Position numbers and translations under genes: made by a program. The notes under the pieces were generated by a model. The model was given only the letters and a program-made list of their open reading frames with translations. It was not told the DNA's origin and did not search any database. This document shows, in pieces, positions 7,197 through 63,033 of a stretch of 64,000 nucleotides of DNA (positions are counted from its first letter, which is position 1; the number at the start of each line of letters is the position of its first letter). The DNA is taken from contig CM035353.1 in NCBI GenBank assembly GCA_020137815.1, forward strand, positions 5,146,001 to 5,210,000, written 5' to 3'. Source of the DNA: Hormiphora californensis (taxonomy: Eukaryota; Animalia; Ctenophora).

Positions 7197-7493
7197 TGCC
7201 AGGTGTCTATGTCACCAATTGGACAAAGTCATTAGAGTAATCCTGCCTCAAGTCCTTTGGTATAAAAACTTATTTTGTTATTGGACCATGCCAGGATTTT
7301 GAGTTGCACATTGGGCGTCCTGGTGGGTTTGGTGTGAAGGTTTGTTTTGTGCTGTTAGGTGACTGCTTTGACCAGTGACTGCGAGAATAGGGTCAGGCTA
7401 ATGCTCTGACAGGTGCTGCTGCACTGCAGCTATGAGCCAACTGGGCCGTGTGGGCTGGGAAGTTGCTCCATGTGTGAGCTCGCAGCATGAGCA

Positions 7494-8935
<1,442 letters not shown>

Positions 8936-9150
8936 TGTGCCTCCTCTTTATCTCGATTACCACCGAGTTTTTTGCGGACGCGGTTTTGTATTATTTACGC
9001 TGCGAATAGCTACCGCGCGCGCGGCTTAGGGTTAAATTTTATTTCGTTTTTAAAGATTTTTTGCGACGCGAGATCCAGATTTTAAATCTTCAGATTTCAA
9101 ATTTATCGGCATTCGGCAAAATGCAAGGGCGTCAGGCGAGGGGAATACAG

Positions 9151-16254: not shown

Positions 16255-16258
16255 TTAA

Positions 16259-32040: not shown

Positions 32041-32783
32041 GGGGGGTACGTCACCTTTTTTTTGCCCACTGCCCACATTATTCTTAAATTTTGAATTTGC
32101 CCACATGGGCAAAAGTGGGCAAAAGTAGGCAAAAGTAGGCAAAAAATTTAAATCCATAAAAAATATATGCTATCAACCAGGTAATCGTCTGTGACAAAGG
32201 TTTTTCACCACCAATGTCCTCCTAGAGGTCCCCCCTATCGATTCCAACCGATAATTTATTTGCTCAGGGTTGATAAGGCTCCATATCCAACTGGGAAAAT
32301 GGGCAAAATATGTTGGCAAAATTAGGAAAATTGGTCATTTTAGGCACGTTTCTCACATGGTTGGAGTGGAAAATTTTTCTGGTTTTTCTGGGACCCCATT
32401 GGAGTACAATGCAAGTGGAAAACCTTTGTTATGTATCAGTTCCCTAAATAGCCCCAAAATGACGAAAAATCACTGGCCTTTGCCTAATTTTGCCTAATTT
32501 TTTTGCCCACTTTTGTCCAGTCGGACATGGAGCCTTATCAACCCTAAGTCATAAGTAAGTACATTAATATTCGGTTGGAATCGATAGAGGGGACCTCTTG
32601 GAAGACATTGGAGGTGAAAAACATTTGTCACAGAGGGTTTTCTGGTAAATTTTTGATGGTTATAATATTTTTGCCCACTTTTTGCCCACTTTGCCCACAT
32701 TATACCTGTTTTTTGAGATTTTGGTTTGCCCATGTGGGCAAATGTGGGCAAAAGTGGGCAAAATAAAAGGTGACGACCCCCCC
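32041..32783. mobile_element. MITE with GG termini, 8(-9)-bp TSD and TTTGCCCAC subterminal repeats (Merlin/MULE-like), inserted in the RNase H coding region
   Basis: TIR ggggggtacgtcacctttt ... aaaaggtgacgacccccc; TSD gctgttcc at 32033-32040 and 32784-32791. Confidence 0.88.
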
Positions 32784-35620
32784 GCTGTTCCCCTATCCAG
32801 GAGATATTGAGCCGTCTGTTGTATGGCATACATTTCTGCCGCCGGGACAGTTCCTTCGGGGCCTAGGTTATACGAATTTCGAGCTAGCTCTGTTTCGCCA
32901 GAGTGGATAATGTATCCTGCACCGGCATTGTTGTTAATTTTTGACCCATCAGTGTGTGCAACTATCGTGTACTTGTCTCCATCCTCCAAAAACGTCTCCC
33001 TTTCTGGGATCTCTAACGAGAATTCCCTGTCTAGGGTGAGTTCCGGGGTTGTGAGATCGTGACATCTGCCCTCTGCTTCCAGAGTTCTGAGATCACGTGA
33101 TACCGTATTGGCATGCGAAGTGAACACTTTTGGGGTCTTTAGGTCTGATTTTATTGGCCCTTCCCATTCTCCCGTTGCCATTAGGGTGTATGCAGTTTTG
33201 GCTGCACAGTACCTCAGATGGTCGGTGATCGGGGCGGTGTTTGTGATTGTGTCTAGGGCTGTTGATGGCGTCGAGGGCATGGCCCCAGTTACCATCTTGA
33301 GTGCTAGCCTCTGTACCCTTATCATGTTTTCTTTGTTTGTTTTGGTTCGCATTGCATTAGCCCAGACCATTGCCCCGTAGCATAAGGTGGGTCTCACTAT
33401 TGCAGTGTATATCCATAGGGCCGTTTTAGGGTTTAGTCCCCACGTGGGTCCCACCACTTTACGGCACTGCATCAGGATATTTTTTGCTTTTTTTATTTGT
33501 TTGTTTACGTGATCGTTCCAGTTCAGTTTGCTGTCAAGGGTAATCCCTAGAAACTTCGTGGATTCGGACACTTTGATAGGGTTACCCTGAATTTTGATCG
33601 GGTTTCCAATTTTCACATTTTTTCGATGGGTGAATATGACTACATGCGATTTCAGGGCACTTAGTTTGAGCCCTACTGTCTTACACCAGGCGTTTATGGA
33701 ATTAAGCCCCTTCTGGGTCGCGTCCCTTAGAGGGAGTATGTCCGCAGAGGGTCCATTTCTTCCGGAGGGCATTGTGGTTGCTACTATATGACATAAGTCA
33801 TCCGCAAAGCCCTGTAGTTCACCTGGTATATTCTTTTTGCTATGGTTTAGTAGATCGTCCATTACCAGGTTCCATAGGAACGGGGAAAGTATTCCTCCCT
33901 GGGGACAACCCCGGGTGGCTCTTATAGTAAGGGACTCTTCCATTAGGTTCGTGGTTATTTCGCGGTTTGAGATCATGTAGGTGATCCAGACAGCTGTTCT
34001 TTTGTCGCGTAGCTTTGCATGAAGGGCTCTTTCCATAGCTTGGAATGCCACATTATCGAAGGCTCCCTCGATGTCCAAGAACGTACCCAGGGCAATGCCC
34101 TTGTGCATGAGGGTGCCTTCGAGTTTGCGTACTACTTTATGGAGGGCTGTTTCTGTTGAAACGCCTCTTCTAAATCCATATTGCGACTTGTTTAATTTTT
34201 TGTGTACTTTTTGGTCTACCTCAATGTGCCATAGAATTAACCGTTCCATGAGTTTGTGGAGGTTTGACGCAAGGGTTATTGTTCGGTATGATTTAGGCAT
34301 CCGATAGTCATCCTTTCCTGGCTTGGGCAGGTAGATGGCTTCTGCTTCCTGCCAGGATTTGGGGGTTACCCCTAGACTGTACGATGCCTTAGCTATCTTT
34401 GCAAATGGTCCAGCAATAATGTCTGCTACTTTTTGCATCATGATGGGCCTGATGCCATCCGGCCCAGCAGCTGTTAAGGGTTTAAATTCCCTCAGCGCCT
34501 TGATGATACGTGTTTTCGAGAATGTTTTTTCATCAGACCACTCCCCTTCTGGGGCTTCAGTTTTGTCCTTGAGGGAGGGTCTAGTTGAGTGGTCCTCGCC
34601 AAAGTGAACCTCTGCCATTATCTGGAGGGTTTCTTTAGGGGACTGTGATAGTTCACCATTTGCGTCAAAGATACAGCTGAGATTATAATCTTTACTGTTC
34701 TTGAGCACTTGGCTAACCTTCTGGGCATCTGAATATGCATCGAGATCTTCAGCCCATATTTTCCAGTTTTTAAATTTAGACTGGTTTTTGGTTTTTGTGT
34801 ATTTGTTTCGAGCTGTTTTTGCTGAGTCCCAGTCCTGATGCACTTTCGTGGTCTGGGCGTGTCTCAGTTTATCAAACATTTCTTCCCTAGCTGCCTTGAC
34901 CTCCCCACTGAGCCACGGGGGGTCTTTGGAGTGGGCGGAAACGTATGTTTTTGGGGTACACTTGTAGTATGCCCACAGCATCAGTTCTATTAGTTTTTCG
35001 TTGGCTGTTTCAAGTTCTTCGGCGTTTGATATTACCATTTCTGTCAGGCCTGTTTCTTCTAGGCCCTTTTCCACAAGTTGTCTATATAGGGCCCAGTTTG
35101 TTTTCTTAATATTGTAGAATGAGCGGATCTTGCTACCGTCCATGTCCCTCAACACAAATGTGATGGGTACGTGGTCGGATCTGCATTTTCCTTCTACTGT
35201 CTGCCAGTCTTGTATCATGTCCAGTGCATGGTTGTTGGTCATGGTAAGATCTAGCACATTTTTTCTTGTTCCATTGTCGAAAGTGTGGGGGCAATTCACG
35301 TTCGATACATGCAGATCAAGATCTACAATGGCATCTAATAGTGCATCTCCCCTTTTCTTCCCAATAGGATCTTTAACCAGTGCCCCCCAACTAGTGTTGT
35401 GGGCGTTGGTATCAGATCCAATTACTAGTTTCAGGTTATTTCTTTTTGCGTGGGCTGCCAACTCTCCTAGTAATTTAGGAGGGCATTCTAGCTCTCTGTC
35501 CATGTACATTGAGCATAAAATGACTGATTTGGTGCCCAGTTTGACAAGGATAGTGACTGTGTCCCTGTCAGTGAATTTGTCAAGGAGAAATACGTTCCTC
35601 CCTAGGTTACTATTGATTAA

Positions 35621-37009
35621 GGGTACGCTAACCAAAATGTTTTTTCGAGTGCAGGGAAATCTCTCACCGTAGGGTTGTAGGCCATGCCAAGGAGACCTCA
35701 AATATGCAATTTGAGCTCTCAAGTCGAATTCATATTTTTGCTACAGCTGCTTGAAAAATGAACTGAAAATAAGCTTTTGGCATCTCAAAAAATTTTTTTC
35801 AAAGATAGGAGCATGAAAATTTGGGGATTTGAAGAGGACATGAAGGTGAATAACCACAAAAATTTTTTTTGCAATCCGAGCTGATTTCTGGTCCTGAGAT
35901 GGATTTCTTTTTTTCCACTTTAACGCCCTATTTGGCAAAGTTCCGAAAACATGTGAAAGCTGTAAATTGGTGAAAAGTTGCGTCTAACAATTATCTAAGT
36001 GGCCATAAATTTTGGGCGTGTCCTTATTTGAGATAAGCTGTACGGAGTTTTTTTGTGAAAGCCGTCATTTCAGAAATAAATAAATTCCCTGTATCTCAAA
36101 AACGGCTGATCGTAGAGACCTGAGACTATGCTTAAACGATTCAGAAGGTCCGATTTTGGGGGGGTCTTCTGAGAGACATTTTGCTCCTACTTCAACCGTT
36201 TTTGCTGTAATTGCGAAAAACAAATTCTATGAAAAGGGCAAAAGCCAAACTCCAATATCCTGTAATTAGGGAATTTTAGCTAATGAAGGACCGAAACTAT
36301 GGAAAACTGTTTAACAAGCTAATTCCTTCACTATTTGGTCCATATGGGTCCCTATAATCATCAAAAACAAAATCACAAAAAATCCACGATGGCGAAGATG
36401 GGTTATTGTTTTTCGCAATTACAGCAAAAACGGTTGAAGTAGGAGCAAAATGTCTCTCAGAAGACCCCCCCAAAATCGGACCTTCTGAATCGTTTAAGCA
36501 TAGTCTCAGGTCTCTACGATCAGCCGTTTTTGAGATACAGGGAATTTATTTATTACTGAAATGACGGCTTTCACAAAAAAAACTCCGTACAGCTTATCTC
36601 AAATAAGGACACGCCCAAAATTTATGGCCACTTAGGTAATCGTTAGACGCAACTTTTCACCAATTTACAGCTTTCACATGTTTTCGGAACTTTGCCAAAT
36701 AGGGCGTTAAAGTGGAAAAAAAGAAATCCATCTCAGGACCGGAAATTAGCTCGAATTGCAAAAAAAAATTTTGTGGTTATTCACCTTCATGTCCTCTTCA
36801 AATCCCCAAATTTTCATGCTCCTATCTTTGAAAAAAATTTTTTGAGATGCCAAAAACTTATTTTCAGTTCATTTTTCAAGCAGCTGTAGCAAAAATATGA
36901 ATTCGACTTGAGAGCTCAAATTGCATATTTGAGGTCTCCTTGGCATGGCCTACAACCCTACGGTGAGAGATTTCCCTGCACTCGAAAAAAAATTTTGGTT
37001 AGCGTACCC
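35621..37009. mobile_element. 1.39-kb foldback TTAA MITE, copy 3 (spacer inverted relative to copies 1 and 2), inserted in the LINE endonuclease
   Basis: TTAA at 35617-20 and 37010-13; same TIRs as copies 1 and 2. Confidence 0.93.
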
Positions 37010-39184
37010 TTAAGATGCTCGCACGTGGTCTCTGAGCCCTTTTGTCATATAGGGCAGAGAATCCTCCGCTGGCTCTAACTTTAGATGTTTTCCCTATAAT
37101 AGGTGGCTCTTGGGCTAGGATAATTTGTGATCGTGTTTGGTTACAGGTGATTATGTCATCCCATGCTTCATGACTTTTATGGAGGTTAATTTGTGTTACT
37201 CTGATGTTTTTACTTATTTTCTTGGCTGCTGAGGGTCCTGGAGGCGGCCCTAGACTCTGCTGCCCCTCCTTCTGGGGTGGGGGCGGCAGATTGTCTTGGG
37301 CTCCACGGGCAGTGTTGGACCTCCCTGTCCCTTCCTTTCGGAGGGTCATTTGGATTCCACCTGCACTATTCGGGGCTGCGATTTGACTCTTCTGCCCTTT
37401 CCCTGTCGCTACACTGCCCGAATCTCCATCATTTAGAAGGTCAGCTTCTCTTACGGTTATTACCCCGACCCTTCGCTTCCCCCTCCCTCGTCCTCTATAG
37501 CTATGGTTTACCATATCTGAATGAGTGAGTGAATGACAAAGTGATCAGTGAGCATTATACACTTGAATTGTTCATACTTTATTTTTTACTAAACAGTGTC
37601 AAGCGACTCAAAGTTAGGCCTTATATTTCTCTAAAGCATGGTAATTTCAAGAAATTGACAATTTTTGTTGTCTTAACTAGTAACACCTTTGCTGGCCCAT
37701 CGCTGAGTCGCAGTACCCTGGAAGCTAGTCCACCTGTCATGGTTGCCATTTCCCTCGTGGCCAGCTCTGTGGTGGTTACGGGGGTGATAAACTGCAGGGC
37801 AGCTATTTTGAATGTCCACTGGCGGTGTATCTGAGTTAACTTGGGTAGGGGGATCCCGCACTTGCCCTCTGCCCAGTCGAGGAGGCCAATAAAGTTGTCG
37901 AGCAGATCGTGTCCACCACGGAGCTTCTCCTGGATGGTGTGGGGGGGGTGTGGGTTCGGTTGAGGAATATCCTCCCCTCATCTCTTACCCCCTTGACTTG
38001 TCGTACCGGTTCTTTCTGGCACTGATACTGTCGACTCCAGAGTCTCCTCTCCACTTGCCGCAGCAGCTCTGGTAGCACGCTGGTCCTCATTCAAAAACAC
38101 AATTGAGTCCATATACTCGAACATACCCTCGAACTCCTTTAACTTTAGACTGACAAATAAAAAACGCATGAAATTTGATACACTGATCAGATATACAAAA
38201 TTATCTTTTTCACTATGTATAATTAGCCGCAGATGACAGATCAGGAGATGATATCATTAGTTCTATACCACATCTAAATGACCTTTTGAGTAGATAAAGA
38301 GGTGTTAGAAAAATGCTATTCTTGTTAGTAACGAAAATAGTTGTTTTATCATACCTGATATATGAGTTTGACACCGTTAAAATGTCCCCGTGTGGCCGAG
38401 TTCATGTTCAACCCTGACATGAAATCTGATCTAGATTGATCCTGAATTTCTGTATCAACAAAACACAGCTGGCGAAACTTTGGAGGCTCGTTTGATGCTA
38501 GGAGAGGTCCAATGTTGTGATACATTTTCCCTTGAATTGTAATGGTCGTACGGTCATACGAGTTCTTGTTTGGCCCAGTTGTTACAAGTGTCTCGATGCG
38601 GTAGGTGCTCTACACATACCTCAAACAACTCGTCCACGCAATACCCCAGCACGGTTTCAACCTCGCTTCTTTGTGATGAGGTCAACCACTCTTCCTACCA
38701 TCTGATTTTCTTAACGGGAGGAGGGGGAAGTGTTTTAGAGACCCTTCTGGGGTTCTATCAGAGACCTAGAGTCGGCTGTCAAATTCCTCCTCTAATTCCA
38801 TGTGAAACAATATTTGAATGGAGTGAGTGAATGGCAAGTTGTCGCCTCCCACTGTGTACGGACACTCCTCAAAATGTAAATAAATGCATGTTGTTCCAGA
38901 TCGAAATATAATAGTACCTTCCACATGATTAAATACCTTCATTAATTCAACCCATGCTTGTTGTATTTTTCAACAGGGTGTATTATACTAAGACATGTGC
39001 TGAACTAATTCCTGTCGGCTGTCGAATTCCTATTACCTTACCGCATTTGAGTTACTCGTTTCTGGGCTCGATGGTTGAAACGGACAGGGCGATGCTGGTA
39101 GTAATTTGAGCCTCGTCTAAAGTGTTGTCAGACTGGGACACAGAAAAGTAGGATGTGATAAGATTAAATTCTTTTTTGGGTACA

Positions 39185-43442: not shown

Positions 43443-45989
43443 GAGAAATAGGTAGGGAGAGAAATAGGTAGGGAGAGACAGGTAGATACAGGGAGAGAGA
43501 TTATAAAGGGATAGGGCCGAAGGATAGGAGATGTTGGCAGTGAAATTAGTAGAGATAGTCTAGATAGCTGAGATGGTCATTTGATTATTTCCATTGAGAA
43601 ATTTGTTGGTGACCACTCGTCGGTCTCGTTGCTATAGCTATGTGGGAGGCTTTGTAAAGTAAGTAGATATCTAGTTAGTAAATTTTTAAAGGGGTTAAAG
43701 AAGTAGTCCTTGAGATGGCGTTGTGATGTTTTTTATTATTATTATCTGTGTTGAGGGTGGCATTTGCACATGGCACGATATGATTATACAGAATAGGGCC
43801 TATGTAAGCAGCCTGTCTTTTTGATCGCTCTAGTCGGAACTCGGGAACATCGAGTATTTTAATTGGGAGACTAGTGGATCTAGTGTAATACTGGGGCGCA
43901 GAGGTGGGGGATGTTGGAGAGAATAGTAACTGGATGTTGTCAGGAGCAACTTTTAGTCTGGTTTTTTGGATTAAACATAGGATTGATTTTGTGATGATGT
44001 TGGGTAGTGCTAAAAGTTTGTGGGCGGTGAAGATAGGTTTAGTGTGGGAGGGGATGGTACCTGATTTGCTGTCGTAGAAGAGTCTGGATTTGCTATTGAG
44101 GGCCCTGACACCTTTTTTTTGGGCCGAGAATAATGGTTTCAGTGAATTCTGGGATGCGGTTCCCCAAACGGATGCACAGTAGAGCAGATGTGATTCGATA
44201 AAGCTGTTGTAGAGGCACTTGAGAGACTTGAGAGGCAGTACTCCTCGCATTTTGTATAAGATGCCTGCGTTGCGACCTACTTTTGCGGCTAGCGCTGTGA
44301 CATGATGTTTCCAGCTTAAATTAGAGTCTATGATTACCCCGAGGAACTTAGCATGATCGGTCGCTATTATTTTGACGCCTCCGAGATGGATTTGTAGTTC
44401 GGAGACTCGTGATCGATCCCTGTTGGTGAATACGAGAAGCTTTGTTTTGCCTATATTGAGTTTAAGCCCGTTACCGCCAACCCATCTATCCACCGCGAGA
44501 AGAGCTCGGTTGACTCTCTCTTCTAGCTCTTCGAAACTGTCGGCTGATATGATGAGATTGGAATCGTCCGCGAATATGAAGAATTTGGCTAAAGGAACTG
44601 CAGCTGGAAGATCATTAATATAGATAAGAAATAGAGTCGGGCCCAGATTTGAGCCCTGGGGAACGCCGTGTTTTATGACACGATCTTCGGAGTTATTGTT
44701 ATTGACACAGACATATTGCATTCTTTGACGCAAGTAAGACGAGAACCATTCTAGGTTGCTACCTCTGACTCCGTAATGCTCTAATTTATGTAAGAGAAGA
44801 CGGTGATCTACCATATCGAAGGCCTTGCTAAAATCTAATAGGAGTAGTGCGGTTACTTTTTTGCGTTCGAGGGCTCGGATAATGGCATTTTGTGCTTCCA
44901 GAATAGCGTGCTCGCAGGAATGTGACCTTCTGAAACCATATTGTGATGTGAATAAAATATTATTAGTGTTTAAGTGCTTCGTAAGGCGGGTTAACATAAT
45001 TTTTTCATAAATTTTTGAGAATGTGGGAAGTAGAGAGATTGGTCGGTAGTTGGCGATATCTGTGCGTGAGCCCTGTTTGAATAGGGGAATGACTTTGGCT
45101 TTCTTTAATTTACTGGGGAAAATACCCTGGGCGAGGGATGCCGCTACTGTGTGTTGCAGGATATTGGAAATGGGATCTACTGCGGCTTTTAGAGGTGCTA
45201 TTCCCGTGTCGGAGGTTGCTCGTATTTTCAGCGACTTAACAGTCTCTTTTATTTCTAGTACTGTTACGGGTTCTAGCGACATGTTAGATTTACATCTTGT
45301 ATCTGGCGAGAGGCTAGGTTGAGAGCAGGAAGGGTTACTGGAAGAATCTTTTAGTTTCTGTGCTATGTTGGTGAAGTAGTCATTGAACGCCTCAGCTATT
45401 TTCGTGTTGCTGGTTATAGTTTCGCCTTCATAGTCAATCTTACTGATCTGAGCTTTGGCCTTACGTGTTCTATTCAGGAGCTGGTTTATTAATTGCCATT
45501 GCTTTTTGCAATCACTACTATGACGTTCCATGTACTGATTGTAGTAGCGGTGTTTTGCAATACGTATGTGTTTATCTACAAACTTTTTCATACGTGTGTA
45601 ATAAAATTTGTTTTGAGGAGAGGGATGGAGGACAAATTTGCTGTAAAGGCGATTTTTGCGGGCACACGCACAGCGCAGCCAATCAAGAATCCAGGGTTTA
45701 TTCTCCCGTTCCTTGCGTCGCTTTGGTTTACTAAGGGGAAAGCATTTATTGTAGACACGTGTGTATTCTTCATAAAATTTATTGAATTTTTGGTCTGCAT
45801 CTTCTACTAGGTTCAAAAAGTCCCAGTCGATATTATTGATTTCATGGACAAAATTCTGGGTGGCCTGTGTACAGTACTATAATAGCGAGTTATTACAGGG
45901 GCCGCTATTACAGGGCCTCGCTATTACAGTACTGTAATAGTGAGTTATTACAGTACTGTAATAGCGTGTCGAGATTCTTCCGACCTGCC
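42142..45989. mobile_element. Palindromic MITE (~1.04 kb without its insert), GG termini, 8-bp TSD (Merlin-like), carrying a nested LINE
   Basis: TIR ggcaggtcggaagaatctcgacacgctattacag; TSD gattctgt at 42134-42141 and 45990-45997; repeats of ctattacagtactgtaatag. Confidence 0.9.
43063..45870 (-). mobile_element. 5'-truncated CR1/L2-group LINE with intact RT ORF (43675-45816, open to the truncation point)
   Basis: KPW, NYRPISLLPTFSKIYEK, QYGFR, LDFSKAFD, GVPQGSNLGP, FADD, FLGV. (CT)n in the 3' UTR and a (GATT)n tail. Splits host ctatt|acagta with no TSD. Confidence 0.93.
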
Positions 45990-47378: not shown

Positions 47379-48004
47379 TATTAGAGCATATTGTTTTCTT
47401 CACCGGTTCCGAGATAGGATGGTGAAGTAGGAGTGCCCCTAATGGGGGTGAGAGGATTAGGTGGAGTTAATAGAGGGAATAGAACTGAATTGTGGATTTG
47501 GGGTGGAAACGGAGTGTGATACAACCCCCCCCCCCCCAATCTGTCTCTCTGTTCACCTGGGCATTAATGAGCTTTAACGCCAAAGAGAAATGACCTCGTT
47601 TTAGCCCTTTTAGGTTTTCGTCGATCTCATCCTGGGGGTGGATCTCATCCTGGGGGGGGAGTTAGAGGGAATATTAAGTGATATCAAAACACAGCCCCCC
47701 CCCCTCAATCTTTCACTCTCCTCTGTTTACCTGGTTACTGGCCGTCACGGTTCGGGTTGGGTTCCGGTTTGAAACGTATAACATTGTTTCTTTTATCCTT
47801 CAGTGATATTCTTTCTCTGGTAATCAGGAGTCGGTGTGCTCTCATGATCCCAGCATAGGAAGGAAGGAATTTTTAAGGAATTGGTTGGTCTTCATAACTT
47901 CCTCGCCTAAACACTAGTGTAGAACAGCGTTGGTTGGTGTTTGACGGAAGGATTTTATGAGGTCCCCTGCTGTCCAGTCCACGTTGTTATGGGGAAGGTG
48001 GTTT

Positions 48005-48364
48005 AGAAGATATTGGGAGATATGTTGATGCAATTAGCATCAGAATTTGATGCCAGGTTTCTCCAGTACTCAACCTATCTCCCAATATCGTCAGACTCAG
48101 TCTAAACCGCCTGGGAGTGGAGCAAAAACTCTCGGAAGCCAGATTATAGATTTGACTTCAGTGTCAATTTTGACCCACTTCCTGTTGACAGACAAACTTC
48201 TGGGGTATTTTCCAGTATATTAGGATCAATTTGTAGTCTTTTGCGACAAACCGGATGCAAATCGATCCAGTGGATCGCGTGCAACATCCCTTGAAAGAAA
48301 CGACCCTTTTTTGGGGGCGGAGCGGATACCTGTGTGCGGGGTCGCGCCAGGTGTCTGTCACCAA
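48005..48364. mobile_element. Partial (right-half) copy of the TTGGTGAC MITE family
   Basis: Similar to ~51925-52332; ends in gtcaccaa. Confidence 0.8.
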
Positions 48365-50321: not shown

Positions 50322-50442
50322 GTTAGTATTGATATAAATAGGGTATGAATCGTTATACCACCGTTAGATTTAGCGAATTATTGATCTGGTTGAATTCTAT
50401 TCCACTTTTTCCCGTGTGAACACTAAAATGATATAATTTCAG

Positions 50443-50988
50443 GGGGGAGACTACTCGGGTTGGAAGGACCATCAGTTCACCGAGAAAATAGACGGCAACT
50501 GCACTGAAGCACATAGACTGGCTGATAGTGGTGACCACGAGAAACTCGGTCAGCTTTTACAAGTCGCAAAATCTAAGAGACTAACGGAAAAGGTGTTACT
50601 GGCAAGAAATGGTTTTAATTGTACACCACTGATCCGTGCTTGTCATAATAATCACTATAAAACTGTGAAAATGCTACTTGATGCTGCAACAGAGCATTCA
50701 GAAGCTTTACTTAGGGATATGCTCTTGGCAGAGAACGAATATGAAACGGCATTACACTGTGCTAAAAAGACGGGTGACGAGAATTTGGTGAAGCTGCTAC
50801 TGACTACGGCAAATCAGGCGAATACATTACTAGAGGCCATCCTTCTGAAAAAAGATAAAGGGGGGAACACACCGTTGTCCTCACAACGACAGCAACAGTT
50901 GATACAAGCGCTGCGTGATCGTACGGGAATGATGAAGTTGTCGATTGGTGAAATTTCAACTAATAATGTGGCTGAAACTAGTACTGAG
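50443..50988 (+). CDS. TRPA-like channel, duplicated ankyrin-repeat exon (182 codons)
   Basis: Stop-free and paralogous to 60229-~60810. Ends ...ACT GAG|gttagt in phase 0, compatible with the 60229 acceptor. Confidence 0.7.
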
Positions 50989-51655
50989 GTTAGTATTGAT
51001 AACTGCGCTGGCAAGCGCAAAGGTCGCCATCCCCCACCCCCCGAAAGCGCCGCCAGAAACGAAGTTATACGATTATAGACCCCGCTGGCTCAAATAGACG
51101 CCCGCCCCGCGCGAACAATTTGCACTGGTCTATTGGACCGTGCACTGCCGTGAGTTTGTGTCTCGATAGACGCACGCCCTCTCACAGATTTGTGTAAAGA
51201 TCACAAAGAATCACTGGAAACACGATAAAATGACATGACAACACAAGAGGGAGTGTGTGTACAACCAACTAAGCTCTCTGTCTAGATTTGGCGCCCGCCA
51301 GTCTGTTGGCAACTGTTCCTCTTGACCCACAATTAACTGTTATCTCTCCCTGCATTCCACCCTTTTGATTTGTTCAAACGATTGGTACGAGTGTATAGGA
51401 ATGTAGAGAGGCACTTTGTAGCTTCATTTCCAACTATTTGACCCGTTTTGTGTGAGCTCTCTGTTTGAAAACCACGTAAATTGTGCTTGTTTTGCTTCTA
51501 GGTGCCCGCCAGCGGGGTCTATAGAATACAACTCCCTCCCTTGCGTGCAGATATACCTGTAAACCCCTCGCTGACGCTCGGGATTTACAGGGCTGTAACG
51601 CACGGGTCCCGAAGGGACCCGTGCATTACAGCTCAATAGACGCACTGCTCTGCAG

Positions 51656-52332
51656 TTGGTGACATAGACACCGTGCGCGACCAAGATTGAGCTCACACAC
51701 AGGTGTCTGCTCCGCCTCAAAAAGGGTCGTTTCTTTCAAGGGATGTTGCACGCGATCCACTGGACCGATTTGCATCCGGTTTGTCGCAAAAGACTACAAA
51801 TGATCCTAATATACTGGAAAATACCCGAGAAGTTTGTCTGTTAACAGGAAGTGGGTCAAAATTGACACTGAAGTCAAACCTATAATCTGGCTTCCGAGAG
51901 TTTCTGCACTACGCCCATGCGATTTAGAAGATATTGGGAGATATGTTGATGCAATTAGCATCAGCTATTAATGCCGGGTATTTTCCAGTACTCACAAGAG
52001 TTCAACCTATCTTCTGAAACCCTCAGATTCATTCTACACCGTCTGGGAGTGGTGCAAAAAGGCTCGGAAGCCAGATTAGAGATTTGACTTCAGTGTCAAT
52101 TTTGACCCACTTCCTGTTGACAGACAAACTTCTCGGGTATTTTCCAGTAAACTAGGACCAATTTGTAGTCTTTTGCGACAAACCGGATGCAAATCGGTCC
52201 AGTGGATCACGTGCAATTTGGCTTGAAAGACACGACCCTTTTTTAGGGGGCGGAGCGGACACCTATGTGCGAGCTCGATCTCGGTCGCTGCGCGACCTCG
52301 ATCTCGCACGCACTAGGTGTCAATGTCACCAA
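51656..52332. mobile_element. Foldback MITE with 9-bp TSD (MULE-like), TTGGTGAC family
   Basis: ttggtgacatagacacc ... ggtgtcaatgtcaccaa; TSD gctctgcag on both sides. Confidence 0.9.
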
Positions 52333-53717: not shown

Positions 53718-54380
53718 AGGCATAAACTCTGGCCACTGGCACGTTATTTCAGATACCTTTCTCCCAGCGCGCCGCTGGGAGAAGGTAGCTGTAGTTTATC
53801 CGCCAGTGGCGGATAAACTGGTTTAAATCACGACGACGATCCCGAGGCGTAGCCGAGGGAGAGGCGGAGGGGTTTAAACCAATAACGTGCCATTGGTCAG
53901 AGTTTATGGGTTATATACCCTGCTTTAGTCGTTTGTTTCAAGTATTACACAATAACAAGAGAGAGAACACTAACGAAAACACACAAAGAGAACTGAGAAA
54001 CAGTCAAAAACATCTCTCAATTGAGTGTATAGTGTTTGGTAACAGTTACTAAGGAGAGAGAGAAAGAAATAACAAGATATGGGGCATGCCAGACATAACA
54101 CAGAGGAATTGAGATAGTGAGAAAGAAGGGGAGATAAAGAGAGAGTAATTGACGGAATGTGTTCTTTCTTTCTCTCCAATGTAGTGTGTAACTCTTGCAA
54201 ATAGTGTTCCCTCTGTATTTCAGTAAGAACTGATCATTTACACTCACTTTGAATGTAACATAGGAGTTAATAATAAATAACCTGCCAGTGGGAAATAATC
54301 TGCCGCTGGACTAGCTGTTTATTGAGAGCGCGCCAGTGGGACTTCTCGCCACTGGCGGGTTATTTAAGTTAGCAGGGTAT
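53718..54380. mobile_element. Non-autonomous element with asymmetric inverted repeats and stacked GC hairpins (Helentron- or Crypton-like)
   Basis: IR cataaactctggccactggcacgttatt / aataacgtgccattggtcagagtttatg encloses three hairpins; ataccctgct (~53915) pairs with agcagggtat (54371). Confidence 0.55.
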
Positions 54381-56152
54381 ATATGATACTATCGTCCGTA
54401 AGGGAATTCTAGTAACAAATCTAAATTGTACAAGTTTGTGGGTATTATGGCATAAATTCATGCTTTCATGAGGTTTGTAGCTACAAGTTCTACAATCGTG
54501 AACGGTTTTTACCAGGAAAAGAACCCAAATTAGAGATTTGTATCATATATGATACTATCGTCCTAATGGTAAATTCTCCTAAAACATACATAATTCGGGC
54601 TAGAAAAGGAGCTAAGAGACAAATCAGGGCACTAAAATGTGTAGAATCATCGCATTAGTGGGGGTAGAGCAAATATTTAGGTCGCTATCTGGATCCCTAA
54701 TGAGATAATTGGATAATTAGCTAATTATCTGTCCCGCGCGTGCTAATTATTCATGAAACTTAATGCTCTGGGAAGGAGTTATGAGACAAATGGGGGCACT
54801 AAAATGTGTAGAATCATCAAATTAGTGGGGGTAGAGCACATATTTAGGTCGCTATCTGGATCTATAATTGAGATAATTGGATAATTAGCTAATTAGTTGC
54901 CCTGGAGCGCTAATAAATGAGACTAGGCGGAGTATACAAGACAAGTGAGGGCACTAAAATGTGTAAAATCATCGCCTTAGTGGGGGTAGAGCTCATAGCT
55001 GAGTTTCTATTCCCACTCCTAATTGAGATAATTGGATAATTAGCTAATTGACGGTTGCACACCGTCCACTTTTCACCAAATCCCGTAGTTTCTAGGTAAT
55101 CCTGAGCTCTTTTGCTCAATCTAAGGATCTTCTGACATCCCCTAATATCCCTAAACCCCTATAACCGTGTGTCCAAACAATAAATATGGGAAACTGTAGT
55201 ACATTAGAGGTTGAACGTGTTGTAGGAGCAATAGGATATAAAAATTATATAGTATTGTAGGTGGATCTTGGATGTATGAGAGGTCTAGGATGGAGCAAGA
55301 GGGTTCTAAAGAGCTGGGCAGTGTCTAGGGTTGTATCGAGCGTATACTATTGTGTAAAACGAGTCAAAGGTGATACAAATGGGGTTAAGGGGTTGTCAGA
55401 AGATCCTTAGATAGAGCAAGAGAGCTCAGGATTACCTAGAAACCACGGGATTTGGTGAAAAGTGGACGGTGTGCAACCGTCAATTAGCTAATTATCCAAT
55501 TATCTCAATTAGGAGTGGGAATAGAAACTCAGCTATGAGCTCTACCCCCGCTAAGGCGATGATTTTACACATTTTAGTGCCCTCACTTGTCTTGTATACT
55601 CCGCCTAGTCTCATTTATTAGCGCTCCAGGGCAACTAATTAGCTAATTATCCAATTATCTCAATTATGGATCCAGATAGCGACCTAAATATGTGCTCTAC
55701 CCCCACTAATTTGATGATTCTACACATTTTAGTGCCCCCATTTGTCTCATAACTCCTTCCCAGAGCAAAGTTTCTTGAATAATTAGCACGCGCGGGACAG
55801 ATAATTAGCTAATTATCCAATTATCTCAATTAGGGATCCAGATAGCGACCTAAATATTTGCTCTACCCCCACTAATGCGATGATTCTACACATTTTAGTG
55901 CCCTGATTTGTCTCTTAGCTCCTTTTCTAGCCCGAATTATGTATGTTTTAGGAGAATTTACCCTTAGGACGATAGTATCATATATGATACAAATCTCTAA
56001 TTTGGGTTCTTTTCCTGGTAAAAACCGTTCACGATTGTAGAACTTGTAGCTACATACCACATGAAAGCATAAATTTATGCCATAGCACCCACAAACTTGT
56101 ACAATTTAAATTTGTTACTAGAATTCCCTTACGGGCGATAGTATCATATATG
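54378..56152. repeat. Large inverted repeat (foldback element): ~765-bp arms, ~245-bp spacer, internal ~135-bp subrepeats
   Basis: 54378-55143 is the near-perfect reverse complement of 55388-56152. Confidence 0.9.
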
Positions 56153-56799
56153 ATACGGCGCCTTAAATGTTAATAACTCATTCAATTTTCAATATTTTTT
56201 GATGCGGCTTTTTGCATTCGGTCGGTTATGTCGAGCACTTTTATTCCTTCAAAGGATTAGTTGTGCCCCCAAAAAACAAAAAAATGAGAAATGTTTTTAA
56301 AAAAAGGCCGAAATTAGCCTCCTTAGAAGGGCTATAAAATTTTTTTCTTGATTTTCTGAGCTGATCTGGACGTGGTTTTAGGTTCATAATCCCTAAAACT
56401 AGCTTGTAACAAAATATGGGCCACCTAGATAAAACATAAGGACTTCCAGGCCGCCTAGAATAGACTGTAGCATATATGCTCTGTCGCCGTCAAAGGGTTA
56501 AGACAAGATATCTTGTTAATCCCGATAATATTACGTCATCATTATGACGTTGTAACGTCGCGTTATGACGTCAAAATGACATCAAAAATGAAATTTTCGT
56601 AGTTTAGCTATTGCTTCGTAGTTTAGCTATTCCTTCGTTTTTCGATTAGAATCCCGATCCGTCTTCAGGAATCAGGGTGTAAAATGAGCTCAAAGAAGTT
56701 TGGTAAGAGTGTAAAAATGACGACTTTAAGACATTCTGTAGGACGTTCCTGCGGATGATGGAAAACCTCACCCGAAGTAAATGCACACACATCCAGTAG

Positions 56800-58563
56800 G
56801 ATAATGTTTTAATTATGCACTGTTCACTGCTGTAGACATCACCCACTCACTTCATACACACACAAACACCCACACACATGACCAAGCCTGTACGACAGGT
56901 TATTGATCACCGGCTGTATTACAGCACGAGAGAGCCGTCACTAGTATCGTGCAGTGATCCGAAGATCATGATAACAATTAATATGACGTGATCAACTGCT
57001 ATAGCCCAACTGTTCATTCTGAGAATTCTGATACAAAGATATTATTTGCCGTACTGATATATGAGGTAACTCCAACCCCCCAGTTTCATCTCCTTGTTTA
57101 ACATGGGAGTTACCAAGGGAATCCACTGGGTTCGATTAATCTAGGCACATACCCACAGTACTATTCGAATTGGCGTATCTTTATATCAGGAATCTCGGAT
57201 AGCAACAATCCTTGTTTGTGTGTGTATGAAGTGAGTGGGTGATGTCTACAGCAGTGAACAGTGCATAATTAAAACATTATCCTTGAAACGTGAGCACTGC
57301 TGATAATAAGAGCCCTGTCTATACGCCTAATCTGTTCAGATAGCAATAAAACACAAGGATTGTTGCTATCCGAGATTCCTGATATAAAGATACGCCAATT
57401 CGAATAGTACTGTGGGTATGTGCCTAGATTAATCGAACCCAGTGGATTCCCTTGGTAACTCCCATGTTAAACAAGGAGATGAAACTGGGGGGTTGGAGTT
57501 ACCTCATATATCAGTACGGCAAATAATATCTTTGTATCAGAATTCTCAGAATGAACAGTTGGGCTATAGCAGTTGATCACGTCATATTAATTGTTATCAT
57601 GATCTTCGGATCACTGCACGATACTAGTGACGGCTCTCTCGTGCTGTAATACAGCCGGTGATCAATAACCTGTCGTACAGGCTTGGTCATGTGTGTGGGT
57701 GTTTGTGTGTGTATGAAGTGAGTGGGTGATGTCTACAGCAGTGAACAGTGCATAATTAAAACATTATCCTTGAAACGTGAGCACTGCTGATAATAAGAGC
57801 CCTGTCTATACGCCTAATCTGTTCAGATAGCAATAAAACACAAGGATTGTTGCTATCCGAGATTCCTGATATAAAGATACGCCAATTCGAATAGTACTGT
57901 GGGTATGTGCCTAGATTAATCGAACCCAGTGGATTCCCTTGGTAACTCCCATGTTAAACAAGGAGATGAAACTGGGGGGTTGGAGTTACCTCATATATCA
58001 GTACGGCAAATAATATCTTTGTATCAGAATTCTCAGAATGAACAGTTGGGCTATAGCAGTTGATCACGTCATATTAATTGTTATCATGATCTTCGGATCA
58101 CTGCACGATACTAGTGACGGCTCTCTCGTGCTGTAATACAGCCGGTGATCAATAACCTGTCGTACAGGCTTGGTCATGTGTGTGGGTGTTTGTGTGTGTA
58201 TGAAGTGAGTGGGTGATGTCTACAGCAGTGAACAGTGCATAATTAAAACATTATCCTTGAAACGTGAGCACTGCTGATAATAAGAGCCCTGTCTATACGC
58301 CTAATCTGTTCAGATAGCAATAAAACACAAGGATTGTTGCTATCCGAGATTCCTGATATAAAGATATGCCAATTCGAATAGTACTGTGGGTATGTGCCTA
58401 GATTAATCGAACCCAGTGGATTCCCTTGGTAACTCCCATGTTAAACAAGGAGATGAAACTGGGGGGTTGGAGTTACCTCATATATCAGTACGGCAAATAA
58501 TATCTTTGTATCAGAATTCTCAGAATGAACAGTTGGGCTATAGCAGTTGATCACGTCATATTA
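56800..58563 (+). mobile_element. Retro-inserted concatemer of a 487-nt structured non-coding unit (415 bp inverted + 2.77 direct copies), 13-bp TSD
   Basis: Period 487 (57215, 57702, 58189); 56800-57214 is the reverse complement of the unit; acacatccagtag at 56787-56799 and 58564-58576. Confidence 0.85.
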
Positions 58564-58576
58564 ACACATCCAGTAG

Positions 58577-59804
58577 TTGGTGACATTGACACCTAGTGCG
58601 TGCACATAGGTGTCCGCTCCGCCCCCTAAAAAAGGGTCGTGTCTTTCAAGCCAAATTGCACGCGATCCACTGGACCGATTTGCATCCGGTTTGTCGCAAA
58701 AGACTACAAATTGATCCTAATATACTGGAAAATACCCGAGAAGTTTGTCTGTCAACAGGAAGTGGGTCAAAATTGACACTGAAGTCAAATCTTTAATCTG
58801 GCTTCTGAGCCTTTTGCACCACTCCCAGACGGTTTAGAATGAATCTGAGGGTATCAGAAGATAGGTTGAACTCCTGTGAGTACTGGAAAATACCCGGAAT
58901 TAATAGCTGATGCTAATTGCATCAACATATCTCCCAATATCTTCTAAATCGCATGGGCGTAGTGCAGAAACTCTCAGAAGCCAGAATATAGATTTGACTT
59001 CAGTGTCAATTTTGACCCACTTCCTGTTGATAAACAAACTTCTCGGGTATTTTCCAGTATATTAGGATCATTTGTAGTCTTTTGCGACGGTGGGCGGACT
59101 CTAGTGCTAACGGACTCTTTATCTAAATCCAAGGCGGACTCTATATCTAAAAACGGACTCTTTATCTACAGTTAGATTTTGAAAAAAATTTAGATAAAGA
59201 GTCCTCCCTGTGTAGACTTTTTAGATAAAGAGTCCGCCCTGTGTAGAATTTTTAGATATAGAGTCCTCTAGTACATTTTGGCGCCAAATCCTCCAATCCG
59301 GACTCTATGTCTAAAATCCTAACCCAACCCAAAACCTAACCCTAACACTAACCCTAACCCTAACCTCGAACCCAAATAACGGCCCTAACACTTCTAAATT
59401 AGTATAGGGGTAGAGCAAACTCTCGTTTCCGGCCTAACGGCCGAAATCTCGAGTTCGCGGCGAAAGGCGGACTCTATATCTAATTTAGATTTATGTAGAT
59501 ATAGAGTCCGCCTTTTGTAGACTTTTTAGATAAAGAGTCCGCCCTGTGTAGACTTTTTAGATATAGAGTCCTCCTAGAGTTTAGACTTATTTGGACTCTT
59601 TATCTAAATCTAAATTTAGATAAAGAGTCCACTGTAGACTTATAGTGTAGCACTAGAGTCCGCACACCTTTTGCGACAAACTGGATGCAAATCGGTCTAG
59701 TGGATCGCGTGCAACATCCCTTGAAAGAAACGACCCTTTTTGGGGCGGAGCAGACACCTGTGTGTGAGCTCAATCTTGGTCGCGCACGGTGTCTATGTCA
59801 CCAA
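58577..59804. mobile_element. TTGGTGAC-family foldback MITE with a nested MITE
   Basis: TIR ttggtgacattgacacc ... ggtgtctatgtcaccaa; TSD atccagtag at 58568-58576 and 59805-59813. Confidence 0.9.
59089..59668. mobile_element. Longer copy of the GGTGGGCGGAC MITE (9-bp TSD) containing (CCCTAA)n-like repeats
   Basis: TSD ttttgcgac at 59080-59088 and 59669-59677; same TIR as 6891-7196. Confidence 0.9.
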
Positions 59805-60228
59805 ATCCAGTAGATCTACCAGCTAGTGAAAACGAGACGTTTCTATCTTTTTTCGTTTGGCGTGAATATGGTTTATATAATCAATAAACCCTTGCTTTTA
59901 ATAGTGGGCGGGTATATCAGACAAACTTTCACCCGCTGATATTTATAAAAAGCGACTCCGATGCGTGCGCTGTGCGTGCGTGCCTGTTACACTGAATCTT
60001 CAGCAAATCGGACCACTGATCTGTAACTTCAGTCCCAGATGAGATAGAGACTTCAAATTTTAAACCGGGTATACATTTCAAGTGAAAGAGAGCCACGCTA
60101 GCGGCTCTTTTTGGGGGAGGGGAATGACAACCTTTACGCTTTCCAGAGTAGTAATAGGGTGTAAATCGAATTGGTTATATTCTATTCCACTTTTTTCCGG
60201 CGGGAACACTAAAATTATATAATTTCAG

Positions 60229-63033
60229 GGGGGAGACTACTCGGGTTGGAAGGACCATCAGTTCACCGAGAAAATAGACGGCAACTGCACTGAAGCACAT
60301 AGACTGGCTGATAGTGGTGACCACGAGAAACTCGGTCAGCTTTTACAAGTCGCAAAATCTAAGGGACTAACGGAAAAGGTGTTACTGGCACGAAATGGTT
60401 TTAATTGTACACCACTGATCCGTGCTTGTTATAATGCAAAGGAAAATGATAGTACAAAGCAATACAAAACTGTGAAAGTGCTACTGGATGCCGCAAAGGA
60501 TTCAGAATATTTGATCAGGGAGATGCTCTTGGCAAGTAACGCTTATCCAGAAACAGCATTCCACTGTGCTGCAAAAAGGGGTCATACGGACGTGGTGAGG
60601 CTGCTACTGACTACGGCAAATCAGGCGAATCAAAAATTACTAGAGAACATCCTCCTGCAAAAAGATAAAGTGGGGCTCACACCATTACACGCTGCTTTCA
60701 ACACTAAGCCTGTAGTTTTTAAGGAGATACTGAATGTGATTCTTTCGAAACCACAACAACAGAAACAATTGATACGAGCGTTGCTTGAGAATGATCGTAC
60801 CGGAATGATGGCGTTGATACAAGCTAATATAATTGGTGATGCACAGCTATTAAGGGACATACTAAAGGCACCGCCCATGGCTTCAGACAACCCGATCAGA
60901 CACATGATGACACAGTTGATAGAAGAGGTACTGGACGAGGACGAATCAAATATAAACGATGTGCTTTTGTCAAAGGAAAAGCATACTAAAAACACACCAC
61001 TCCACAAAGCTTCGTCTGAAGGTGACAGCTTTACTGCCAACCTGGTACTTGATAAAGCGAAAAGCAAAGGATTCCTAACACTACAAGACGTCCTCCTTGC
61101 AGTAAACAAGAACGGCGAAATTCCGCTACATGTCGCCTCAAAATATGACAAAGTTGGTGTGATTGAGCTGATGATGAAGATGGATTCCGTCCTTAAACAA
61201 AACGAGGAGATAGTGGATGAGGAGGCAGGACGTACTGGTTCAAGTGAACCTGATTGCACCGTTTTGAAGCGGAAGATGCTTATAGCTAAAGACAACCAAG
61301 GATATACACCGCTAGACCTTGCCAAAAATAACGATTGTAAAAAAGCGGGGGAATTATTAAAAAAGTTCACGGATAAGGACATAACATATCTGTTGAATGT
61401 TAAAATACGGAATTGGGAAAGTTCAATAGATGATATGATCAAGTTGAACGCGAAACCTGAAAATGATAAACTGTACCTGGATCGCTGTATCGATATTGGT
61501 TCAGGGGATGCAGTAGATAAATGGCTGGTCGCCTTGTACAGAAAGTTTCAGGAGGGACAGAAAGGACATTGTAGTGAGGATTATGATAAAGAAATGGAGT
61601 TTTGGAAAGAAGCTTTGCAACTCGTGTCACCGGAACTTGCTGTTAAACACCTTCCTGAGACTGTAGGTATGGTCTTGGACGCTTCACTAATTGGTGTTGA
61701 ACAAGAAAAACACTGGGTAATAATGAATTTTAAAACGCTAGAAAGATTACAGGAAAACAGAACGCGAACGTTTCTGGATCTCATCGTAGAGGAGTTCGAG
61801 TCTAAAGGAGATTTATCTCATGATAAGTTTCTATCACATCCTGTGGTGGAGCAACTTATCAAGATAAAATGGATGCAAGTTGGACAAATCTGGTTTTTGT
61901 TGTCCCTACTGATGCTTCTTTCCTTTTTGGTAATGCTGATTGTCGCAGCATATCCAACAGCGAAAATTCCGAATGATATAGGGGAATTGATAGCGAAAAA
62001 TGAAACGGATCATATTGAATACCCGACAGAGGCCGAAGTTACAGCCCTGGAAATTGTTCTTTTCACTATGTCCGTATTAAGGTTGATTGGAGAGATTTTT
62101 GATTTTATCTATTCCATTACTGATCATTTTAGCTGTATTGAAGGAGTAGAAAAGAACGCAAAAAGATCAGGGTGCAAGAAAGAAAGAAAATTTTTTCAAA
62201 ATCTTAAAGCCTACTTCTCTAACATAGATAACGTCACTGAGCTTATCCTCTACTTCAGTACAATTGTCTATGTGTGGAGTGGTGAATATCTTTGGTGCAA
62301 AAAGATGTTTGCTTTCGTAGCCGTCACTTCTGGTTTTTGGAACATGTTTCTTATATCTCGATATGTTCCACATATCGGAATTTATTATATCATGTTCCTT
62401 CGAATTTTAAAAACATTTTTTTGGATTATTCCACAAATGGCATTTTTTCTCGTTTCGTTTACAATAGTTTTCACATTCGCGATTAATGATGATATAGTTA
62501 ACTTTGCAAGCAGTGGAAAGCCATATTATTGGGTGTGGACAAGATTTTTTAGTAGTTTGGAGTATGACGTTATTGACATAAACGAAGAAGAGAGAAGCGT
62601 ATATCTGGCACTTGCTACATTTTTCATCTTTGGTTTACTGATTAATCTTATTTTGTTAAACTTAGTAACTGGACTGGCGATAGATGATGTTCAGAAAATC
62701 AGGACTGAGTCAGAGAAACAAGAGAAAATAGGTCAGATTAAAATGATAAGTATCGGAGAAAAAATTTGCTTTTATCTAAATAAAGTAAGTTATCTAGGCA
62801 TTTGTAAATGGATAGAGGCATTAATACCAAGGCAACCCGATGTTTTTAATGGTCCAATGAAAGATTTTTCGGATGAAGGTATTACTAAAATGTATGCCAT
62901 CACCTCTAGAAAGTTCTACAATACTATTGAAAACGGGAAAGTAAAGTTGCAAGAAGAAGTGAAGAAGTTGTCTGATGAAAATGTTAATGTCCTGGTACAG
63001 ATGGCACAAGCTATGACTGTACATAGCGCTTAA
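60229..63033 (+). CDS. TRPA-family cation channel, main exon (ankyrin repeats + six TM segments + TRP-like helix/coiled coil), 934 codons
   Basis: Stop-free from an aatttcag acceptor. Ankyrin motifs (TPLH, TAFHCAA, TPLDLA), pre-S1 LSHPVVEQLIKIKW, S4-S5 GIYYIMFLRILKTF, S6 LLNLVTGLAIDDVQKIR. Confidence 0.92.
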   Translation, partial: GGDYSGWKDHQFTEKIDGNCTEAHRLADSGDHEKLGQLLQVAKSKGLTEKVLLARNGFNCTPLIRACYNAKENDSTKQYKTVKVLLDAAKDSEYLIREMLLASNAYPETAFHCAAKRGHTDVVRLLLTTANQANQKLLENILLQKDKVGLTPLHAAFNTKPVVFKEILNVILSKPQQQKQLIRALLENDRTGMMALIQANIIGDAQLLRDILKAPPMASDNPIRHMMTQLIEEVLDEDESNINDVLLSKEKHTKNTPLHKASSEGDSFTANLVLDKAKSKGFLTLQDVLLAVNKNGEIPLHVASKYDKVGVIELMMKMDSVLKQNEEIVDEEAGRTGSSEPDCTVLKRKMLIAKDNQGYTPLDLAKNNDCKKAGELLKKFTDKDITYLLNVKIRNWESSIDDMIKLNAKPENDKLYLDRCIDIGSGDAVDKWLVALYRKFQEGQKGHCSEDYDKEMEFWKEALQLVSPELAVKHLPETVGMVLDASLIGVEQEKHWVIMNFKTLERLQENRTRTFLDLIVEEFESKGDLSHDKFLSHPVVEQLIKIKWMQVGQIWFLLSLLMLLSFLVMLIVAAYPTAKIPNDIGELIAKNETDHIEYPTEAEVTALEIVLFTMSVLRLIGEIFDFIYSITDHFSCIEGVEKNAKRSGCKKERKFFQNLKAYFSNIDNVTELILYFSTIVYVWSGEYLWCKKMFAFVAVTSGFWNMFLISRYVPHIGIYYIMFLRILKTFFWIIPQMAFFLVSFTIVFTFAINDDIVNFASSGKPYYWVWTRFFSSLEYDVIDINEEERSVYLALATFFIFGLLINLILLNLVTGLAIDDVQKIRTESEKQEKIGQIKMISIGEKICFYLNKVSYLGICKWIEALIPRQPDVFNGPMKDFSDEGITKMYAITSRKFYNTIENGKVKLQEEVKKLSDENVNVLVQMAQAMTVHSA

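Follow-up and report, generated by a model that had tools for sequence, protein, structure and literature searches.

The window analysed here, a stretch of 64,000 nt from the genome of the ctenophore Hormiphora californensis, contains at 60379-63033 an uninterrupted 884-aa frame for an ankyrin TRP channel of painless/TRPA-like type. An Atlas search agrees on a TRP-family channel, and a protein of Pleurobrachia bachei, 78% identical, is the sole match at E<=1e-30. A truncated partial duplicate of this frame lies about 9.8 kb upstream (50387-51078). Two LINE-type reverse-transcriptase-like frames of 1026 and 733 aa are found at 32660-35740 and 43675-45876 (minus strand). The window further holds a large fold-back element (54379-56151), whose inverted arms are long and which contains internal repeats of 155-166 bp, and three near-identical fold-back elements of ~1.4 kb with 440-610-bp arms (16254-17652, 29337-30738 and 35615-37015), the last of which sits between the longer reverse-transcriptase frame and that enzyme's upstream frame. 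An identical 296-bp tandem opens the window (1-634), followed by a duplicated unit of ~880 bp containing a strong palindrome (659-2425); no hammerhead core was found in either. About 1.6 kb of tetranucleotide microsatellite occupies 7342-9085.

Our subject is a tandem insertion upstream of the TRP frame, built from the following parts:

56787..56799, + strand: left copy of a 13-bp target-site duplication, the final 2 nt of which match the inverted arm too (microhomology)
56798..57215, - strand: inverted, 5'-truncated copy of 418 bp that faces the direct array head-to-head and is 100% complementary to 57353-57770
57213..57215, no strand: 3-nt microhomology at the inversion junction, with its partner at 57353-55 within the side-hairpin loop
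57213..58564, + strand: direct head-to-tail array of 2.78 units, with a period of 487 nt and a single mismatch
57215..57701, + strand: the one unit under study, 487 nt, non-coding
57686..57730, + strand: GT-rich tract, a main contributor to the unit's G/T excess
58564..58576, + strand: right copy of the 13-bp target-site duplication, the first nt of which matches the unit too

With up to two mismatches allowed, a 14-mer spanning the duplication matches only the site at 56787-99 and 58563-76 within the window. Microhomologies at the joins measure 1-3 nt (2 nt at the left end, 1 nt at the right), and the three nucleotides at the inversion junction fit both the inverted arm and the direct array. 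The insertion ends carry neither a poly(A) nor a simple-repeat tail, and the tandem insertion has no terminal inverted repeats. Its target begins in a short (AC)n stretch and is neither a (TA)n nor a (C)n run. Projected onto the unit, the right end is equivalent to 57589-90 and the left end to 57281-83, 307/180 nt apart. The sole mismatch of the array, at 58367 in the third unit, is a C>T change in a CpG, and the longest stop-free frame of the unit is 47 aa on the + strand and 65 aa on the - strand. Adjoining the array, a non-autonomous DNA transposon occupies 58577-59805 and has terminal inverted repeats of ~10 bp; its 9-bp duplication (58568-76, 59806-14) is also the final 9 bp of the 13-bp duplication. 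Relatives of this transposon lie at 51656-52332, with a 9-bp duplication of its own, and at 48002-48364.

Parts of the stretch are contained in 20 of 24 listed sequencing runs from 12 studies. Seven runs were examined (X1, X2, X4, X5, X6, X16 and X18); X1 and X4 possibly derive from the source sample, while X5, X6, X2 and X18 belong to four other studies. They reveal a highly repeated and homogeneous tandem family: 2450 of 3992 contig pieces in X1, 640 of 819 in X5 and 835 of 1173 in X4 are at least 99% alike on the unit. In X1 the summed contig depth reaches 25,778-37,914 in four of five bins of the unit versus 8-23 on the TRP frame, which indicates strong repetition and gives no copy number. 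Since most copies lack the 2 nt at 57743-44, the usual unit is 485 nt. The rare allele carried here (57743; 57256-58 in stem-loop A, described below) makes up at most ~6% of the depth in X1 (100/1784), yet it is present in all four copies at this locus, the inverted arm included, and therefore points to one uniform template. The head-to-tail joint appears in all four DNA runs (X1, X4, X5 and X6) as well as in X2 and X18. Because it is found in independent studies and the third unit carries its own CpG change, an assembly artefact is an unlikely source of the array.

Some runs tell less. In X18 the two contigs both map to the unit, while the adjoining 2.5 kb has none, absent cover being uninformative; one of the two contigs in X2, which may be DNA, lies on the unit, as do two of four in X16, one of them 38 nt long with 6 differences and probably unrelated. 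Contigs from RNA libraries have depths of 2-7.5, come from mixed seawater libraries and are uninformative on strand, level and circularity. Three further sequences (X4 record 9, X6 record 28 and the X5 loose end at 57631) match the unit at ~80-87% over 40-190 nt and suggest subfamilies that have diverged, or relatives from other species.

The places where copies stop are informative on how they were made. Ten 3'-side ends are found among the 20 loose ends listed of 292: three continue the unit, two lead into diverged-looking relatives and five into unrelated DNA, at 57574 (3 contigs), 57596 (4), 57598 (5), 57647 (1) and 57775, equivalent to 57288 (2). All but 57647 of these five lie near the two ends of the present copy, again among the 20 of 292 listed. 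Of the ten 5'-side ends in the same set, four pass into unrelated DNA at 57512-57558, which is what short copies truncated at the 5' end would show. Strand-changing joints elsewhere account for three of the seven joints listed; one X16 contig runs minus-then-plus, in the same geometry as here, and one X18 contig plus-then-minus, in the opposite geometry. An X16 contig joins left-flank-like sequence directly to 59805 and looks like an empty site; with 7 differences in 58 nt it is a relative or paralog.

The earlier note on this DNA, made from the letters alone, had described the unit as a branched, viroid-like structure with a plus-strand bias. All 13 of its short motifs are present in 57215-57701, where it had placed them or at most 1 nt off, and its 21-nt helix (57372-92/57527-47) comprises 18 Watson-Crick pairs, one U-G, one C-A and one U-U. 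Folding in circular mode against shuffles, the check that it had proposed, yielded -150.0 kcal/mol (z -4.6) on the + strand and -130.5 (z -4.1) on the - strand; the linear minimum free energies are -154.8 (z -5.26) and -136.2 (z -4.74). In either mode and on either strand, none of 100 shuffles folded as well. The predicted fold is real yet smaller than first claimed, and can be divided as follows:

57285..57585, + strand: rod domain of ~300 nt with the folding signal, z -7.4 on + and -4.5 on -
57325-57392 paired with 57527-57564, + strand: robust core of the rod, with the side hairpin 57339-57370
57438..57503, + strand: apical domain with nested helices 57438-43/57484-89 and 57450-54/57472-76 and a possible crossing helix 57454-62/57495-503, a predicted pseudoknot
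57246..57302, + strand: stem-loop A, in which the insertion's left end (equivalent to 57281-83) and a further 3' end (equivalent to 57288) lie; candidate reverse-transcription start site
57565..57619, + strand: stem-loop B, alternative to the UUCG hairpin 57600-13, containing the right end (57589-90 equivalent) and the 3' ends 57574, 57596 and 57598; candidate main start site

The rod boundaries (57285-57585) were picked post hoc. The remainder of the unit (57586-57771, 186 nt), in which a cluster of four hairpins had been proposed, folds no better than shuffles (z +0.5 on +, -0.6 on -). Ten nested helices were tested on the + strand, and six hold with mean pair probabilities of 0.93-0.99; among the structures predicted at this level are 57325-38/57552-64, the side hairpin 57339-70, 57372-92/57527-47 and the UUCG hairpin 57600-13. 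The other four fail in the nested + ensemble, 57288/57577, 57296/57568 and 57454/57495 with a probability of 0.0 and 57407/57512 with 0.22. Imposing all ten together costs 14.6 kcal/mol (-135.4 vs -150.0). The minus strand favours 57407/57512 (0.81) and 57454/57495 (0.94). As for the pseudoknot or alternative fold suggested at 57438/57484, the helix 57438-43/57484-89 turns out to be nested, and the 9-bp helix 57454/57495 can coexist with it solely as a pseudoknot across it. In its 8-bp form this helix is worth -10.3 kcal/mol as a duplex, and the 15 crossing Watson-Crick pairs of the apical domain, a region picked post hoc, are matched by 7 of 500 shuffles. Stem-loops A and B look alike to the eye, but the idea that they are homologous modules was dropped because, with four scoring schemes, 37-81 of 200 shuffles did equally well.

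The strand bias claimed for the whole unit is compositional: the gap between + and - (-19.5) compares with -18.9 +/- 5.8 in shuffles, 58 of 120 being as extreme, and follows from the G/T excess, of which the tract at 57686-57730 is a main source. For the rod alone a bias does stand, with a gap of -14.0 vs -3.0 +/- 5.0 and 0 of 150 shuffles as extreme, within its post hoc boundaries. The reported preference for G-U over A-C on the + strand has the right direction (3:1 in the helices of the earlier note, 4:1 on strand-neutral diagonals) in numbers too small for a test. At position 57439 a common C>T variant retains pairing, as G-U, on the + strand and abolishes it on the - strand; it constitutes 14-33% of the depth in three genomic runs and is present in X18 too. 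In the genome background, represented by 85 other windows of 301 nt with 10 shuffles each, the fold of the rod is equalled or surpassed in 4 of 85 and its strand gap in 5 of 85. Under DNA parameters, too, the folding of the rod is significant (z -5.6 and -5.0), so that folding alone is no pointer to RNA. As modelled, the rod is real and moderately plus-biased, and selection on its RNA structure is plausible.

These comparisons bear on whether RNA was involved at all. The array could instead be a DNA-level repeat, either a satellite or a rolling-circle DNA, trapped at a break that the adjoining transposon possibly made, with the rod as a decayed inverted repeat that has no RNA role. Fold-back DNA is indeed abundant in this genome (241 inverted pairs, besides the 4 of 85 windows that fold as well), the rod is able to fold as DNA, composition accounts for the strand bias of the whole unit, and the duplications of array and transposon have a common boundary. 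We nevertheless consider this explanation unlikely: terminal inverted repeats are lacking, the 13-bp duplication is longer than the 9 bp of the transposon, dispersed short copies have varied 5' ends and recurring 3' ends, and six of the seven best-folding background windows show a strand gap below 2 kcal/mol, as compared to about 10 for the rod. A + strand RNA intermediate, already implied in the earlier note, is supported mainly by the insertion geometry, since the 13-bp duplication, the head-to-head inverted copy and the microhomologies mark priming from both nicked target strands; the rod-only gap and the 57439 variant add modestly to it.

If an RNA was copied, the next consideration is whether it cuts itself. 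Rfam at gathering thresholds returned nothing in the 64-kb window, and at E<=10 no ribozyme class was found for the array in all permutations. The seven matches obtained at E<=10 belong to two snoRNA models with 16.5-18 bits vs cut-offs of 40-47 and are attributed to chance. Descriptors for hammerhead, HDV and tRNA were based on consensus patterns. A relaxed circular hammerhead search on both strands, allowing the 3-8 swaps that PMC4209133 describes in part of its text, gave no first core having a paired 3-8 position in a workable topology, and a window-wide regular expression found no hammerhead within the array. For an HDV-like descriptor (7-bp P1, P2-P3-L3 order, catalytic C before P2) there were 0 hits on the + strand and 14 loose ones on the - strand, none of canonical dimensions. 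A GAAA/GUC stem was also considered as part of a hammerhead and rejected, as neither a first core nor a stem II follows.

The label 'viroid-like' is not supported. The unit has no Rfam ribozyme and no relaxed hammerhead or HDV match, it is ~66% paired with half of it unstructured relative to shuffles, and its family is near-uniform, not a quasispecies. Among the features that define viroids, neither ribozymes nor a central conserved region, a near-complete rod or branched fold or RNA-only replication was found, and the unit is highly repeated in DNA runs. An endogenised viroid-like replicon with additional RNA-to-RNA replication would share the size, the rod and the UUCG loop, but with no ribozyme on either strand and a near-uniform, highly repeated genomic element in the DNA runs we find this hardly credible. 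Pattern scans with a 20-mer retrieved 0 loci in viral and 0 in metagenome contig collections. Three further patterns matched 6, 5 and 2 loci; all 13 match just the 18-23-nt motif, as expected by chance.

More serious is the possibility of a retrozyme-like element with a true circular RNA. Its monomers would be cut either by an undescribed ribozyme, of which the apical pseudoknot could be an example, or by a nuclease of the host; after ligation, the same Penelope-like enzyme as in the reading favoured below would go round the circle and copy it into cDNA. Perfect head-to-tail joints and a rare allele in four of four copies are expected of one circular template. Size and self-pairing resemble the animal retrozymes as far as PMC7229834 describes them, only 7 of 500 shuffles equal the crossing apical helices, a GAAA-stem-GUC arrangement (57284-93/57577-83) lies immediately before the 3' end, and X2 contains a 515-nt contig closed on itself. 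Against this, the ribozyme searches came back empty down to a workable hammerhead core or a canonical-dimension HDV fold, the GAAA/GUC stem has a pairing probability of 0.0, and a closed contig is found in DNA run X6 too, so that genomic tandems explain it. We therefore regard a circular template as possible but doubtful. A ctenophore circular-RNA retroelement cut and closed by a self-cleaving RNA of undescribed class, for which the pseudoknotted rod tip (57438-57503) would be the candidate, and copied by an enzyme of Penelope-like type that starts at two distinct stem-loops, is a distinctly less probable proposal.

By descriptive features, the tandem family resembles a retrozyme without a ribozyme. 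Animal non-LTR retrozymes are recognised by non-coding head-to-tail units of 150-450 (up to ~970) bp and by duplications longer than 4 bp without LTR, PBS or PPT, both of which are seen here (13 bp in the latter case); the defining type I hammerhead, canonical or minimal, was not found in the unit. A Helenus/TRIM origin was rejected because the 13-bp duplication is too long, animal Helenus TRIMs producing 4 bp according to the parts of PMC10886601 that treat them. Non-autonomous Penelope-like elements (PLEs) are characterised by a partial tandem, an adjacent head-to-head inverted 5'-truncated copy and a long duplication of variable length, and this combination is present. The 30-40-bp tail expected between the two ends is not, as they lie 307/180 nt apart. 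The ends at 57574 vs 57590-98 might represent a short tail of this kind, and the tail is described as optional.

A head-to-head inversion could also come from an ordinary LINE enzyme. In this case the unit would be a SINE-like passenger of an L1-, CR1- or I-type LINE and the inversion a product of twin priming, which, in the L1 insertions covered by PMC2912911, yields the same inversion with 10-17-bp duplications and 2-5-nt microhomologies. Duplication length and microhomologies here agree with such 5'-inverted insertions, and long reverse-transcriptase frames are at hand in the window (32660-35740 and 43675-45876). However, the unit shows no likeness to the window's LINEs by blastn, carries no poly(A) or simple-repeat tail and has no Pol III B box on the + strand at up to two mismatches. 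Also, inversions are rare among L1 passengers (1 Alu and 4 of 477 SVA in the data given in PMC2912911) but recurrent here. A tRNA-derived SINE was rejected as well: ARAGORN made 0 calls at its 100% and 90% settings and 3 at 80%, where 80 of 100 shuffles also yield calls. The tandems, the recurring inversions and the apparently fixed, tail-less 3' ends favour a PLE over a LINE, and we judge a LINE passenger quite improbable.

On balance and with moderate confidence, we interpret the 485-487-nt units as a non-coding tandem family in which no ribozyme can be recognised. It would be a non-autonomous retroelement whose + strand RNA is copied by the reverse transcriptase-endonuclease of a putative Penelope-like helper, probably of the hammerhead-less Naiad type. 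An existing array would be transcribed on the + strand into an RNA longer than one unit, the circle being the rival form, and bound by the helper protein, for which the rod is a likely handle. The helper would nick both target strands 13 bp apart, and reverse transcription could then be primed by each free DNA end at an internal position of the RNA, through 1-2 nt of homology and without poly(A), preferably in stem-loop B (about 57590) and stem-loop A (about 57283). Where the two cDNAs meet through a 3-nt homology, the head-to-head inversion would arise. A single RNA serving both ends would have to be at least ~1.7 kb (3.5 units) long.

Several reported properties of PLEs are in line with this scheme. 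Endonuclease-bearing PLEs form partial tandems with an adjacent inverted 5'-truncated copy and 8-10-bp duplications, to the extent that PMC8557442 and PMC3846280 cover them. In vitro, the excerpted results of PMC11167929 indicate internal, non-homologous initiation from both nicked strands, with hammerhead cleavage dispensable and hammerhead mutants still inserted; the missing poly(A) and the 1-2 nt of end homology fit this mode of initiation. Naiads, which have no canonical hammerhead, occur in the ctenophores Beroe and Mnemiopsis, and multicopy head-to-tail insertions are formed by MRC1 and other non-autonomous Chlamys elements that lack a hammerhead (both from sections of PMC8557442). One non-autonomous Chlamys element also ranked among the most active elements in mutation lines and produced very short 5'-truncated insertions, according to portions of PMC9977147. 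Against the PLE reading stand the distance between the ends in place of a 30-40-nt tail, the X18 contig of opposite geometry, the 9-bp overlap with the duplication of the adjoining transposon, a likeness of A and B that is within chance, the basis of 20 of 292 loose ends, and the fact that two of the three genomic runs (X1 and X4) possibly represent the source sample. By eye and with six 9-12-nt terms, no likeness was found between the unit and the Beroe and Mnemiopsis Naiad consensus sequences.

The tandem insertions of retrozymes are thought to be due to hammerheads that cut and close the RNA. A uniform, highly repeated family with retrozyme-like footprints and no recognisable ribozyme offers a direct test of whether a ribozyme is necessary, and bears on how Penelope-like elements build tandems and inverted heads. 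The 485-nt unit is a convenient in vitro substrate for both self-cleavage and reverse-transcription start sites. In the open-access literature, including the consulted sections of the Hormiphora genome paper (PMC8527503), we came across no account of a ctenophore family of this kind.

How does the unit compare to known systems? Animal non-LTR retrozymes, as characterised in parts of the work of Cervera and de la Pena (2020, PMC7229834) and the preprint of Li et al. (2026, 10.64898/2026.07.22.740005), are likewise small, non-coding and tandem, have a GC content below 50%, long duplications and predicted self-pairing, and are proposed to depend on PLEs. What sets them apart is that every unit carries a type I hammerhead and that their circular RNA is abundant; no hammerhead was found in the present unit, which is known from DNA and strandless contigs. 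The 35 species named in the relevant part of the preprint by Li et al. include no ctenophore. L1 5'-inverted insertions formed by twin priming share the inverted 5' part, the 10-17-bp duplication and the short microhomologies with the array; unlike it, they have a poly(A) tail and a single unit, and inversions of their passengers are rare, as reported in portions of PMC2912911.

Closer parallels are provided by PLEs. Judged from the pertinent sections of Craig et al. (2021, PMC8557442), the Naiads and the non-autonomous Chlamys elements, MRC1 among them, resemble the unit in being non-coding (in the non-autonomous cases) and multicopy head-to-tail, with an inverted 5'-truncated copy and without a canonical hammerhead. 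The non-autonomous Chlamys elements have a 3' end in common with a known autonomous family, whereas the unit, compared with the two ctenophore Naiad consensuses, shows no likeness. Chlamys and Naiad elements have a 30-40-nt tail and (TA)n or (C)n targets, in contrast to the 307/180 nt between the ends of this array and its different target, and no predicted 300-nt rod like that of the unit is described in those sections. The Poseidon PLE of Anolis, studied in vitro by Frangieh et al. (2024, PMC11167929, in its corresponding parts), is protein-coding and has two adjacent start sites, whereas the unit is non-coding and its ends are far apart. In this system both strands are nicked and extended, synthesis starts internally and non-homologously in a stem-loop, and ribozyme cleavage is unneeded, just as we propose for the unit.
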